Shown: in pieces, positions 23,670 to 55,916 of the stretch
Layout of the letters: every line of letters begins with the position of its first letter
How positions within the stretch are numbered: the stretch's first letter is position 1
Origin: a virus
Taxonomy: Duplodnaviria > Caudoviricetes
Virus record (IMG/VR): IMGVR_UViG_3300025889_000071
DNA length: 64,000 nt
Reading direction: 5' to 3' (one strand)
Position numbers and translations under genes: made by a program
Notes under the pieces: model-generated
What the model was told of the DNA's origin: nothing
What the model saw: the letters and a program-made list of their open reading frames with translations, nothing else
Databases searched by the model: none

Positions 23670-23715
23670 AATCAACGACAAAGAAGTTTACATTTCTTAA
23701 CCGTTGGAACACACC

Positions 23716-23815
23716 CCGCAAACCGAGACCTCTAGGGTGTCTAAATCACGTCTCTTATATCCCAAGGCGAGGGGTCTTGGGAAATAGTAACTCCACCATG
23801 TCCCTGATGGTCTTA
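23716..23815 (+). ncRNA. PhotoRC-II-like structured 5' UTR of psbA
   Basis: Stems GAGAC/GTCTC (23725/23750), CCCAAG/CTTGGG (23761/23776), CCAT/ATGG (23796/23807) directly upstream of psbA, as in the cyanophage PhotoRC-II motif; boundaries approximate. Confidence 0.75.
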
Positions 23816-30429: not shown

Positions 30430-30495
30430 CTTTTAAATCCATTTTAGGGGGCAAAAAAATCTGGGGCTTTTTTGCTCCTATAAGGTTTTTAAACA

Positions 30496-30509
30496 GTATC
30501 AAATGATAC
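30496..30509. promoter_or_regulatory. NtcA-binding-site-like palindrome
   Basis: GTATCAAATGATAC = GTA-N8-TAC with extended GTATC/GATAC symmetry. Confidence 0.6.
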
Positions 30510-30522
30510 ACAACAAAAGTAC

Positions 30523-30551
30523 TTGACTAAATAAGGTATAAGGTCTATAAT
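30523..30551 (+). promoter_or_regulatory. Near-consensus sigma70 promoter for riboswitch transcript
   Basis: TTGACT (30523-28)-N17-TATAAT (30546-51); predicted TSS ~30558, 2 nt before the aptamer. Confidence 0.8.
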
Positions 30552-30559
30552 AGACCTGT

Positions 30560-30842
30560 CGTTCATCCAAGAGGCAGTCGCTGTGCACATAGCATAGAAA
30601 GACACATCTGGACGCAAGTAAGTCGCGGAACGGAGCGTTCATCCTATGATTGAGTTACTACTATTAGCTAATTTACATAGTCCTCCAAACATGACTTGTC
30701 AGCAAGTTAGAGAGGTGGCAGAAACCGTACTGGATTCTGATATGTCTCAACAAGATAAGCAAAGATTCTTATCTCGTTTGTTTGGACAGCATATGATGCT
30801 AAAGTGTCTTAAGAAATAGGACGCACACGACTGAAGGAACGG
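30560..30842 (+). ncRNA. Glutamine riboswitch (glnA-type aptamer) with greatly expanded P2 and P3
   Basis: P1 CGTTC (30560)/GAACG (30837); P2 TCC..GGA closing 41 nt; GCAAGTA junction; loop-E AGTA/GAA; P3 AGTCG (30621)/CGACT (30828); upstream of a YRG-motif peptide gene. Confidence 0.75.
30646..30819 (+). CDS. 57-aa ORF nested inside the riboswitch P3 loop
   Basis: MIELLLLANLHSPPNMTCQQVREVAETVLDSDMSQQDKQRFLSRLFGQHMMLKCLKK; GGAG at 30632-35; hydrophobic N-terminus. Confidence 0.6.
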   Translation: MIELLLLANLHSPPNMTCQQVREVAETVLDSDMSQQDKQRFLSRLFGQHMMLKCLKK

Positions 30843-30879
30843 GAGATTAAATTCACCCTAGTATTTCAGGAGAAACACA

Positions 30880-31047
30880 ATGAATACACTTCTCATGATC
30901 AAGAAGCAGATCGACAAAGCATCTGCACTTCACGACGCTCAAATTGCTCATACTGCATATCGTGGTGTTGAGTATAACGTATGTGGTCATGAACCACATG
31001 AGACTCACGGTACATTCTGCTATCGTGGTCATACTTATAACAAGTGA
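30880..31047 (+). CDS. DUF4278 / downstream-peptide-like protein (55 aa)
   Basis: MNTLLMIKKQIDKASALHDAQIAHTAYRGVEYNVCGHEPHETHGTFCYRGHTYNK, two YRGxxY motifs; AGGAG RBS. Confidence 0.8.
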   Translation: MNTLLMIKKQIDKASALHDAQIAHTAYRGVEYNVCGHEPHETHGTFCYRGHTYNK

Positions 31048-31070
31048 ATTACTTGTATTAGAATGCATAG

Positions 31071-31105
31071 GAGAGGTTGACTACCTCTCTTTTTTTGTCT
31101 ATAAT
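31071..31105 (+). terminator. Terminator whose top is a -35 box; overlapping promoter
   Basis: GAGAGGT-TGACT-ACCTCTC-T-tract; TTGACT (31077-82)-N17-TATAAT (31100-05). Confidence 0.75.
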
Positions 31106-31126: not shown

Positions 31127-31300
31127 ATGGATAGAGATAAATTAAAACTCATCATCAAAAACATGGAACTCCTTCTCGATTCTTTGAAAGCAGAAGTGCT
31201 TTCTGAACCTGAATCGTACTTACAGGGAGAATACTTAAATTATCCACAAATTACTGACTATGATGAGGTATTTGATGATGACGATGGATACCCCGATTAA
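31127..31300 (+). CDS. Conserved hypothetical protein (57 aa)
   Basis: Manually read MDRDKLKLIIKNMELLLDSLKAEVLSEPESY...DYDEVFDDDDGYPD. Confidence 0.7.
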   Translation: MDRDKLKLIIKNMELLLDSLKAEVLSEPESYLQGEYLNYPQITDYDEVFDDDDGYPD

Positions 31301-31304
31301 AAGT

Positions 31305-31484
31305 ATGTACGAAGAATTAAATTGCTTCGAAGAAGCCCTTAAACATTTCGGAACTAGAGTAGAGTTTGCTATTGCTATGGAGATGGGTAGAAAACTGACT
31401 CCAGAAGAAGCATATCAAATTATCAAAACTGAACTAAAAGCATTAAAATCCTGTCGTAAGAAATTTAAAAAAGATGAATGTTAG
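31305..31484 (+). CDS. Conserved hypothetical protein
   Basis: MYEELNCFEEALKHFGTRVEFAIAMEMGRKL.PEEAYQ.IK. Confidence 0.7.
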   Translation: MYEELNCFEEALKHFGTRVEFAIAMEMGRKLTPEEAYQIIKTELKALKSCRKKFKKDEC

Positions 31485-32109
31485 ATTGATTAGTGTGACT
31501 CCTGATGCGGAGAAAACAATGGGTTATGTTGCTCGTGTGAGCAATCCCTCTAACCAAGAGAATCCTAAAGTTGCAGGACTTCTCAAATATTGTGTGAATC
31601 ACCAACACTGGTCTGTGTTTGAGCAGGCATTCATGACGCTTGAAATTGAGACTACCAGGGGACTGGCGGCCCAAATTTTGAGGCATCGTAGTTTCACATA
31701 TCAAGAGTTTTCCCAACGATATGCTGATTCTTCTCTGTTAGGTGGTACAATTCCTCTCCCAGAACTCCGTCGTCAAGACACCAAGAATCGTCAGAATTCT
31801 ATTGATGATGTTGACCCATTTATCGTGCAAAAATATGAGATGTTGATGCAAGACCATTTTAAAGAAGCAATGGACTTGTATCAAAAAATGCTTGATGAAG
31901 GTATTGCAAAGGAATGTGCTCGTTTCGTGTTACCCCTCGCAGTGCCCACAAAACTCTACATGTCAGGTTCATGCAGGTCATGGATCCATTATATCTCTTT
32001 GAGGTCGGCCAACGGCACACAGAAGGAGCACATGGACATTGCAGAGGCATGTAAAAAAATTTTTGTGGAGCAATTCCCGACTGTTGCTGAAGCACTAGAA
32101 TGGGTCTAA
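31474..32109 (+). CDS. thyX: FAD-dependent thymidylate synthase
   Basis: HWSVFEQA, ILRHRSFTYQEFSQRY (RHRxxSxxxxSxRY), ECARFVLP. Confidence 0.95.
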   Translation: MNVRLISVTPDAEKTMGYVARVSNPSNQENPKVAGLLKYCVNHQHWSVFEQAFMTLEIETTRGLAAQILRHRSFTYQEFSQRYADSSLLGGTIPLPELRRQDTKNRQNSIDDVDPFIVQKYEMLMQDHFKEAMDLYQKMLDEGIAKECARFVLPLAVPTKLYMSGSCRSWIHYISLRSANGTQKEHMDIAEACKKIFVEQFPTVAEALEWV

Positions 32110-55406: not shown

Positions 55407-55478
55407 GGGAGTGTCGCATATTGGTTAATGCCCATGCCTTATAAGCGTGTGAACCGAGTTCAATTCTCGGCATTCCCA
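55407..55478 (+). tRNA. trnI: tRNA-Ile(UAU)
   Basis: Acceptor GGGAGTG/CATTCCC; anticodon stem CATGC/GCGTG, loop CTTATAA; T-arm CCGAG-TTCAATT-CTCGG; no CCA. Confidence 0.9.
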
Positions 55479-55481
55479 CTT

Positions 55482-55554
55482 GCTCCTTTAGCTCTCTGGT
55501 GAAAGCTCTCTGCTCATAACAGAAGAAAGGTCAGTTCGATCCTGACAAGGAGCA
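55482..55554 (+). tRNA. trnM: tRNA-Met(CAU), elongator or Ile2-type
   Basis: Acceptor GCTCCTT/AAGGAGC; loop CTCATAA; T-arm GTCAG-TTCGATC-CTGAC. Confidence 0.9.
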
Positions 55555-55557
55555 CTC

Positions 55558-55629
55558 GGGTGATTGGCGCAGAGGTAGCGCAGTAGATTTACATTCTATT
55601 GGTCACTGGTTCGAATCCAGTATCACCCA
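55558..55629 (+). tRNA. trnV: tRNA-Val(UAC)
   Basis: Acceptor GGGTGAT/ATCACCC; stem GTAGA/TCTAT, loop TTTACAT; T-arm CTGG-TTCGAAT-CCAG. Confidence 0.9.
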
Positions 55630-55633
55630 CCTT

Positions 55634-55916
55634 GCGAGTATGGTGGAATCGGTAGACACACCAGACTTATGAAAATTGAGCCTCATTTGAGAAATCTTAT
55701 GAGTGTAACTCCTCAAATTCGGGGAAACCTGTAAAATGGCAATCCCGAGCCAAGCATCGCAAGATGAAGGTGTAGAGACTAGACGGGGAGCACCTAAACC
55801 GAAAGGTATGGTGAAGGGATAGTCCAGACCACAAACCGTAAGGGCAAGGAAACTTGTAGTGGTAAGAAAATCTGTTGACCATTGCGGTCGTGGGAGTTCA
55901 AGTCTCCCTACTCGCA
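55634..55916 (+). tRNA. trnL: tRNA-Leu(UAA), split by group I intron (exons 55634-55668, 55867-55916)
   Basis: Joined exons give an 85-nt type II tRNA with anticodon loop CTT|AAAA, variable arm GACC..GGTC, T-loop GTTCAAGT. Confidence 0.92.
55669..55866 (+). mobile_element. Group I self-splicing intron (trnL-type, 198 nt, no ORF)
   Basis: Inserted U^AA; P1 CTT/GAG with U.G; P AAATTCGGGGAA, Q AATCCCGAGC, R GTGTAGAGACTAGACG, S GGATAGTCCA; GNRA loops in P6, P8, P9; ends in G. Confidence 0.93.

Follow-up and report, generated by a model that had tools for sequence, protein, structure and literature searches.

What kind of RNA lies between a near-consensus promoter and a small YRG-motif gene in a cyanophage, and how might it govern that gene? 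The question is raised by positions 30496-31099 of the Caudoviricetes record IMGVR_UViG_3300025889_000071, a stretch of 64,000 nucleotides (nt) that is called the window here. A first interpretation of the letters, which we call the sequence-only reading, had placed at this locus an NtcA-like box, a promoter, one glutamine aptamer at 30558-30636 and a DUF4278 peptide that might act on glutamine synthetase. Our answer differs in its center: the RNA appears to be a composite member of the glutamine-riboswitch family, whose covarying helices close around a second, conserved coding gene (open reading frame 1, ORF1) ahead of the peptide gene (ORF2). With a rough probability of 0.6 for the explanation as a whole, including the nested RNA described below, 30496-31099 would be a unit of a T4-like cyanomyovirus that is transcribed early and on its own.

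The RNA element spans 30560-30842. The aptamer-like segment thus does begin at 30560, very nearly where it had been placed, and 30558-30636 is only the 5' part of the composite RNA. Within the element CGUUCA, GACGCA and GGAACG are each present twice, and the second CGUUCAUCCUAUG (30636) and second AUAGGACGCACACGACUGAAGGAACGG (30816-30842) flank the 57-codon ORF1. The parts are as follows, with helices named according to the fold that we favor.

30560-30564, plus strand: outer P1 5' strand, CGUUC; nested partner 30837-30841, alternative partner 30628-30632
30566-30612, plus strand: outer P2 hairpin (hp1), whose UCCA/UGGA stem bears a 39-nt extension in place of the short loop
30613-30620, plus strand: CGC third-strand segment and 5' half of the E-loop, CGCAAGUA; invariant
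30621-30625, plus strand: P3 5' strand, AGUCG, pairing with 30828-30832 across 202 nt
30627-30640, plus strand: inner core, G-GAACG, GAG loop and CGUUC, the P1-like hairpin of the putative permuted second aptamer
30642-30647, plus strand: inner P2 stem (hp2), 5' strand UCCUAU, pairing with 30816-30821 and taking in the first two letters (AU) of the ORF1 start codon
30646-30819, plus strand: ORF1, 57 amino acids (aa), in the hp2 loop
30816-30827, plus strand: hp2 3' strand AUAGGA, which holds the ORF1 stop codon UAG, then the second CGC segment, CGCACA
30828-30842, plus strand: P3 3' strand CGACU, E-loop 3' half GAAG, outer P1 3' strand GAACG and the long-range-pair G; matches the Rfam consensus ..GAAGGAACG

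This arrangement is widespread. By BLAST, 419 phage records match the region, all of them cyanophages; a 19-nt core and one variant of it recovered about 150 IMG/VR loci that keep the layout, and the same order of motifs occurs in six isolate genomes from different Kyanoviridae genera. Comparison of these relatives shows that P3, the hp2 stem and hp1 have been kept by compensatory mutations. In an alignment of 65 sequences, 96.9% of cells are paired and nine pairs are changed on both sides, which none of 500 shuffles equaled and for which slid controls reached at most 52%, although such counts take no account of shared ancestry. P3 is 100% paired in this alignment, and one of its pairs occurs as G-C, A-U and U-A. 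Besides AGUCG/CGACU, we found AAUCG/CGAUU in 28 of the 28 loci with a readable partner and AUUCG/CGAAU in 3 of 3, the loci of these two kinds having been picked because their second position differs; CGGCU and CGAUU, which occur as rare 3' variants, retain wobble pairs. In hp2 the third position is C-G, U-A, U-G or A-U, the first pair goes from U-A to C-G in four loci, and two loci have the stem wholly swapped for GAUUAUG/CAUAAUC. All four basal pairs of hp1 are changed on both sides. The core motifs are invariant in the 65 aligned loci, the outer P1 5' strand among them (65/65).

Assignment to the glutamine-riboswitch family, which the sequence-only reading had already made, is supported because the core motifs, the covarying helices and above-threshold Rfam matches in compact relatives point the same way. 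The window does not contain a riboswitch at the Rfam gathering threshold: against cut-offs of 35 bits for Glutamine (RF01739) and 33 bits for Glutamine-II (RF01704), 30558-30636 scores 15 and 13.7 bits, respectively. Compact relatives that lack ORF1, however, score 38-44 bits with the Glutamine model, and the window falls short of this because of its 39-nt and 202-nt insertions. The marks of a type-1 aptamer are present, namely P1 CGUUC/GAACG, a CG(C/G) third strand and a G before and after GAACG, all of them twice and invariant in 65 loci, together with covarying P2 and P3 helices and the AAGUA/GAAG E-loop strands. Segment 30613-30620 agrees with the Rfam Glutamine consensus CG(G/C)AAGUA, and the roles of the CGC strand and of the long-range-pair G are taken from the published structural work (PMC6698751). 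A type-2 aptamer would reach 33 bits, and its GGAACGG pseudoknot strand would be enclosed by a local P2 helix; here the score is lower and the partner is far off, at 30828-30832.

ORF1, a gene that the sequence-only reading had passed over, is a real coding gene, because it is open in all 131 loci that have a long hp2 and evolves with a median ratio of nonsynonymous to synonymous substitution (dN/dS) of 0.40. The third codon position is the most variable. The family comprises 119 distinct proteins, which range from 49 to 66 aa, and the inserts mostly differ in length by multiples of three. The AUG occupies a fixed position in the stem in 131 loci, CGUUCAUCC(C/U)AUG, and the only Shine-Dalgarno-like sequence available to it is the GGAG in the inner hairpin (30627-30640). 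The frame continues in 122 of the 131 loci through GAC-GCA-(A/C)AC-GAC to a UGA or UAA within the E-loop strand; in the window and eight relatives it stops 12 nt earlier, at the UAG of 30817-30819 in the hp2 stem. AlphaFold2 predicts a three-helix protein (predicted local distance difference test, pLDDT, 79.8), and two Cys residues are conserved. The family is in neither Pfam nor PHROG, a homologue search returned just four near-identical proteins, and a fold search with the model yielded nothing beyond hypothetical viral proteins and non-specific helical matches. We considered ORF1 as a glutamine-codon leader peptide and rejected this, as the family does not conserve its Gln codons.

In about 30 relatives (locus L006, positions 1265-1497, and loci L014, L019, L022 and L033, for example) hp1 also encloses an ORF of its own, of 65-68 aa, where the window has only a 39-nt hairpin. 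This ORF, like ORF1, begins and ends at the stem: it starts at CGUUCAUC(C/U)nAUG, which would leave a leader of only some 12 nt, and stops 3-4 nt before GACGCA. The N-terminus of its protein is hydrophobic, and there are two Cys, as in ORF1; the two genes are probably paralogues.

These results bear on the simplest picture of the locus, in which a single aptamer at 30558-30636 is followed by ORF1 as a passenger and by a DUF4278 peptide that inactivates glutamine synthetase in the manner of IF17. The picture draws on the weak Rfam matches at 30557-30639, on the fact that DUF4278 is the N-terminal domain of IF17, and on the glutamine riboswitches that precede gifB (PMC6212724). Its RNA part is already contradicted by P3 and hp2, which pair across ORF1 with compensatory changes, and by the ORF1 AUG, fixed in a stem in 131 loci; for the peptide part, the 55-aa ORF2 has no room for the portion of IF17 that binds its target (PMC6212724), and we found no solved relative. 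We therefore regard this picture as very improbable. In place of one simple aptamer we see a double core, apparently nested, built around the conserved gene at 30646-30819.

How the two sets of core motifs are arranged is a separate matter. The most economical fold, and on balance the one we favor from the sequence comparisons, is a canonical type-1 glutamine aptamer whose P3 carries a circularly permuted aptamer-like core. The outer aptamer would consist of P1 (30560-30564/30837-30841), hp1 as P2, and the E-loop AAGUA/GAAG; its P3 would be capped, instead of by a loop, by the second core (GAACG-GAG-CGUUC, hp2 and the second CGC strand), and ORF1 would sit in the hp2 loop of this inner core. 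The alternative is a tandem of two aptamers, 30560-30632 and 30636-30841, each with its own P1 and bridged by AGUCG/CGACU as a pseudoknot that resembles the type-2 P2. In its favor, both halves share the spacing CGCA, 10 nt, GGAACGG; the strand order of the first half is that of the Glutamine-II model, to which the halves give sub-threshold matches; and the literature mentions tandem glnA RNAs (PMC2864571).

The compact relatives speak for nesting. They pass the Rfam Glutamine cut-off only when the first CGUUC and last GAACG are taken as P1 and everything between as an insertion in P3, in which case the E-loop aligns as CGCAAGUA and GAAGG; read as half-aptamers they score 22-34 bits, all below the cut-offs except one (34 bits, against 33 for Glutamine-II). 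The E-loop points in the same direction. Its strands, AAGUA at 30616-30620 and GAAG at 30833-30836, flank P3 on opposite sides, leaving one strand in each half and one strand missing from each member of a tandem. The solved type-1 structure has P3 joined to P1 and P2 through the E-loop (PMC6698751), and the outer aptamer is therefore canonical only when nested. The inner part, for its part, runs GGAACG, a loop of 3-5 nt, CGUUC-A, hp2, GACGCA, with all of the pocket nucleotides in the same cyclic order; being closed at P1 and open at P3, it has the form of a circular permutation. The sequences of its P1-like hairpin (predicted -3.9 kcal/mol) are invariant, and the loop always has 3-5 nt with G first, a length that suits a hairpin loop better than a linker between aptamers. 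In folding calculations that include no term for the ligand, the nested fold comes to within 8 kcal/mol of the unconstrained minimum and is favored by about 6 kcal/mol over the tandem fold without its pseudoknot.

Several points weigh against the nested explanation nonetheless. The window's own Rfam scores are far under the cut-offs, and the covariation counts carry the reservation about ancestry given above. Both P1 helices are invariant, so that covariation fits a pseudoknotted tandem as well as nesting. Folded by themselves, moreover, the first 91 nt form the side-by-side aptamer 1. Taking the evidence on both sides together, we consider the tandem unlikely and retain the nested fold.

To consider how the RNA might control ORF2, two further features are needed.

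30831-30869, plus strand: alternative anti-Shine-Dalgarno hairpin, CUGAAG (30831-30836) with UUUCAG (30864-30869), overlapping the Shine-Dalgarno sequence AGGAG at 30868-30872
30880-31047, plus strand: ORF2, 55 aa, an N-terminal helix and a DUF4278-like core with two YRG motifs

The strands of the anti-Shine-Dalgarno helix have the consensus CU(G/A)AAG and (C/U)UU(C/U)AG, and the helix is 5-9 bp long. At its central pair, 101 unique loci have G:C in 48 cases, A:U in 32, G:U in 21 and A:C in none (Fisher p = 2.6e-12, with relatedness ignored), and the helix is present in the local minimum-energy fold (-12.1 kcal/mol). The shared nucleotides show that, at the level of sequence, this helix competes with P3 and the E-loop for 30831-30836. 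A local UCC/GGA hairpin that could mask the ORF2 Shine-Dalgarno sequence was also considered and rejected, having only 3 bp; the covarying CUGAAG/UUUCAG helix is preferred.

Without glutamine, 30831-30836 would pair with 30864-30869 and leave the ORF2 Shine-Dalgarno sequence partly hidden. Because 30831-30836 belongs both to the end of P3 with the E-loop and to the anti-Shine-Dalgarno helix, a folded, glutamine-bound sensor should free the Shine-Dalgarno sequence: glutamine would lock these nucleotides in P3 and the E-loop, and ORF2 would be made at high glutamine. The two glutamine riboswitches that have been tested, gifB and yfr6, are both ON switches (PMC6212724), and with this analogy added to the covariation we think it likely that glutamine turns ORF2 on.

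What happens to ORF1 is less certain. Its initiation region is the aptamer core itself, with the AUG within the hp2 stem, and from this geometry a fully folded sensor would shut ribosomes out of ORF1, just as ribosomes on ORF1 would block folding. That the folded sensor blocks ORF1 initiation, so that ORF1 and ORF2 alternate with the nitrogen status of the host, is a model to which we give slightly less than even odds. More tentative again, as an interpretation of the sequence, is a full toggle in which two glutamine-binding cores, one of them permuted and nested in the P3 of the other, would select ORF1 at low glutamine and ORF2 at high glutamine.

The main rival for the switching logic is translational coupling. 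Here ORF1 would be read from the unfolded nascent RNA, the terminating ribosome would melt the anti-Shine-Dalgarno helix and so turn ORF2 on, and the aptamer would mainly limit re-initiation on ORF1. The position of the ORF1 stop argues for this, and tells against the alternation just described: in 122 of 131 relatives the UGA or UAA lies inside, and indeed centers, the 5' strand of the anti-Shine-Dalgarno helix, where a ribosome that terminates could open ORF2 and couple both genes, and the middle base of that stop covaries. The ORF1 start region, in addition, remains free up to the point at which the 3' half has been made. Against coupling stand the earlier UAG stop of the window and eight relatives, the compact relatives that have the platform and ORF2 without any ORF1, and the distance of 45-60 nt from the ORF1 stop to the ORF2 start. 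We judge coupling to be quite unlikely, and prefer control of ORF2 by the glutamine-bound sensor.

ORF2 has the motifs YRGVEY and YRGHTY, as the sequence-only reading had noticed along with the terminator that follows, and the protein ends two residues past the second motif. It belongs to phrog_545 (E = 1.3e-32) and has a dN/dS of 0.28. The naming of this peptide as DUF4278 holds in part. With Pfam DUF4278 (PF14105) ORF2 reaches 20.6 bits (E = 5.9e-4), under the gathering cut-off of 25.3, and other orthologues of this long type score 14.6-21.3 bits. Short forms found at the same position score up to 31.5 bits, above the cut-off, and 24 of the 26 match DUF4278 at E <= 0.001; by hhalign, the long-type and short-type profiles are related with a probability of 95.7% (E = 1e-8) over residues 22-55. 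ORF2 is thus, on profile comparison, a divergent DUF4278-like peptide whose core is homologous to bona fide members. The structural model has a 21-aa helix followed by the two-YRG core. A fold search with it gave a cluster of cyanobacterial DUF4278 proteins with a template-modeling score of 0.47, which is not decisive; no solved relative turned up.

The proposal that the peptide modulates glutamine synthetase fared less well. DUF4278 corresponds to the N-terminal domain of IF17, which needs its C-terminal part to bind glutamine synthetase (PMC6212724). Judged by its length against this description of IF17, ORF2 lacks such a part; inhibition of glutamine synthetase by ORF2 is therefore unsupported, and would be a guess.

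The features upstream of the RNA are the following.

30496-30509, plus strand: NtcA-type box GTA-N8-TAC, GTATCAAATGATAC, ending 13 nt before the -35 hexamer
30523-30551, plus strand: sigma-70-type promoter TTGACT-N17-TATAAT, an 11/12 match
30542-30556, plus strand: perfect inverted repeat GGTCTAT-A-ATAGACC, spanning the -10 hexamer

Box and promoter were both found where the sequence-only reading had put them. The transcription start site (TSS) is predicted near 30557-30559, 1-3 nt ahead of the aptamer, and taking it near 30558 gives a box center of about -55.5, in agreement with the earlier figure of -55. Relatives conserve both hexamers and the spacing between them.

Taken alone, the box in the window means little, as GTA-N8-TAC occurs 11 times there against 9.1 expected, a count not above chance. 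It carries weight because it is conserved: 74 of 136 unique upstream regions have it at the equivalent site upstream of the -35, against about 4.5 in shuffles (16-fold). The boxes of relatives are tightly positioned and often extend to a full TGTA-N8-TACA, with the inner 8 nt variable, and NtcA sites are common in cyanomyoviruses (PMC3037559). From this conservation, the box upstream of the -35 probably adds an input from 2-oxoglutarate at the level of DNA.

The layout can be set against the two familiar types of NtcA promoter. Class II activated promoters lack a -35 box and have GTA-N8-TAC centered at -41.5, followed about 22 nt later by TAN3T. In the window TAAGGT (30532-30537) lies exactly 22 nt past the box, which is the class II spacing, yet it overlaps the consensus -35/-10 pair, and TAN3T at 21-23 nt past the box is kept in just 5 of 60 relatives. 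It is not the repressed layout of the gifA/gifB type, with the box over the -10 or the TSS, as the box ends 13 nt before the -35 (2-9 nt in relatives); the IF17-like genes of hosts have an NtcA site over the TSS, a repressive arrangement (PMC6212724). Among 54 box-bearing relatives with a -35 found, the gap between box and -35 is 8-9 nt in 39 loci and 2-4 nt in 14, and the 13-nt gap is confined to the window. This shift of half a helical turn between lineages tells against an NtcA role of the usual kind, being hard to fit to one fixed activation geometry.

GTA-N8-TAC might instead not be used by NtcA at all, and be an upstream promoter element, the site of another CRP-family or phage factor, or a chance match in the window. 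The chance-level count favors this, as do the near-consensus -35 and -10 already present, the absence of the exact box from 62 of the 136 relatives, and a box center (about -50 in most relatives) that is neither the activating -41.5 nor a repressing overlap of the -10 or TSS (PMC6212724). The tightly positioned enrichment and the full TGTA-N8-TACA palindromes with variable interiors argue the other way, as does TAAGGT at the class II distance, poorly kept as it is. We think a role without NtcA somewhat unlikely and keep to the NtcA-type assignment. Nitrogen sensing at both the DNA and the RNA level, as first proposed, is then a reasonable reading of box, RNA and peptide, with the amendment that the RNA sensor is not a simple aptamer.

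The inverted repeat at the -10 has arms of at least 6 nt in 61 of 114 unique relatives, against about 7 in shuffles, with the two arms covarying from one phage to another. A pattern of this kind points to a hairpin, in DNA or in read-through RNA, and not to a fixed operator.

The unit is bounded by two hairpins.

about 30446-30480: terminator-like hairpin upstream of the module
31069-31099, plus strand: intrinsic-terminator-like hairpin and T-run, closing the unit

As 30496-31099 stands between them, it reads as a transcription unit of its own. The loop and 3' arm of the closing terminator contain the -35 (TTGACT, 31077) of the next sigma-70-type promoter (31077-31105, with TATAAT ending at 31105), which would drive a 57-aa ORF at 31127-31300 (phrog_878); terminator and promoter are in this way fused into a compact cassette. 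Further on, a 74-aa ORF at 31260-31484 matches DUF7219 (73.9 bits), and its end overlaps the start of an ORF at 31474-32109.

The window carries a PhotoRC-II RNA and tRNAs, and the phage is a T4-like cyanomyovirus. The PhotoRC-II RNA, a known motif of the cyanophage photosynthesis region, lies at 23698-23795 (73.7 bits); three tRNA genes occupy 55407-55629, and a group I intron match follows within 30 nt downstream (55659-55848, 63.3 bits). Of the sequenced phages, Synechococcus phages S-SM2 and SynMITS9220M01 come closest, with an identity of about 76-79% across parts of the 10 kb searched; none of the sequenced relatives has a record that covers 80% of that 10-kb stretch. Thymidylate synthase is annotated somewhere in the searched 10 kb of the best-matching relatives, without being tied to the ORF at 31474-32109.

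Genes flanking the module vary among phages and include transaldolase, ThyX or the small subunit of ribonucleotide reductase; the module therefore moves as a cassette. An HNH endonuclease gene adjoins it or sits within its neighborhood in Sf-FS3, RN05-S and RB11-B (e.g. L006:796-1203). We found no evidence of the layout in host chromosomes in a narrow search, a scan of a prokaryote genome collection with a degenerate pattern, which gave almost only chance matches. The exact core occurs in five contigs of that collection; three are short or mis-binned, and the others, of 194 and 188 kb, match whole cyanomyovirus genomes in size.

Parts of this system have been described before: glutamine riboswitches in T4-like cyanophages (PMC9964418), the link between glutamine riboswitches and DUF4278 (PMC6212724) and NtcA sites in cyanophages (PMC3037559). 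The closest known RNA is the type-1 glutamine riboswitch (glnA RNA motif, RF01739; Synechocystis gifB leader, PMC6212724), with which the phage element shares P1 CGUUC/GAACG, an A and P2 hairpin, the CG(C/G) third strand, the G after GAACG and the AAGUA/GAAG E-loop around P3. As in gifB, it precedes a small ORF of the DUF4278 type and has what looks like an ON-type platform, in which the aptamer is set against pairing of the ribosome-binding site. Unlike type 1, the phage P3 closes over 202 nt and carries a second aptamer-like core, the inner hairpin encloses a 57-codon gene with start and stop codons in its stem, hp1 is extended by 39 nt, the score is 15 bits instead of 35, and the element is placed behind a consensus sigma-70 promoter.

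With type 2 (Downstream-peptide motif, RF01704; structure in PMC6698751) it has in common the pocket nucleotides CGUUC, CGC and GGAACGG, with CGCA in place of CGGA, as well as the association with short YRG-motif peptides in marine picocyanobacteria; the first half, if read as a tandem, follows the type-2 strand order. It differs in having no local P2 after GGAACGG, whose partner is 200 nt away, in scoring 13.7 bits against 33, and in its E-loop halves, which type 2 lacks. Leaders with two sets of glutamine-aptamer cores are known, and with two sets in one leader cooperative or more digital sensing is plausible here. Whereas neighboring aptamers of that kind are independent, the phage cores have a helix in common and seem to be nested, with one core permuted, and their hairpin loops can hold genes (ORF1, and the hp1 ORF in about 30 relatives).

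On the protein side, IF17/gifB and the IF17-like peptides of Prochlorococcus (PMC6212724) likewise have a two-YRG core of the DUF4278 type directly behind a glutamine riboswitch, with an NtcA-type site nearby. Unlike IF17 (PMC6212724), ORF2 has 55 aa, a phage-specific 21-aa N-terminal helix and a Pfam score below the cut-off, and the phage box lies upstream of the -35 where the site of host gifB-type genes is over the -10 or TSS. In a literature search that did not take in Ames & Breaker 2011 and Ren et al. 2015, we found no published description of a gene inside an aptamer or of a nested, permuted second core.

Riboswitch aptamers are normally seen as compact, non-coding domains upstream of the genes that they control. 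Here, by the evidence of covariation, aptamer helices close around a translated gene, and sensing and translation would compete for the same nucleotides. The element is common: hundreds of cyanophage genomes, both marine and freshwater, have it. Rfam-based annotation nonetheless misses it, and in the isolate genomes that we examined it is unannotated. If the toggle is true, one ligand would give two opposite protein outputs, with one of the genes lying within the riboswitch's own ligand-binding domain. The locus also points to two small phage protein families tied to the nitrogen status of the host, and it gives a concrete example, open to experiment, of a virus that would read host glutamine, and probably 2-oxoglutarate too, early in infection.

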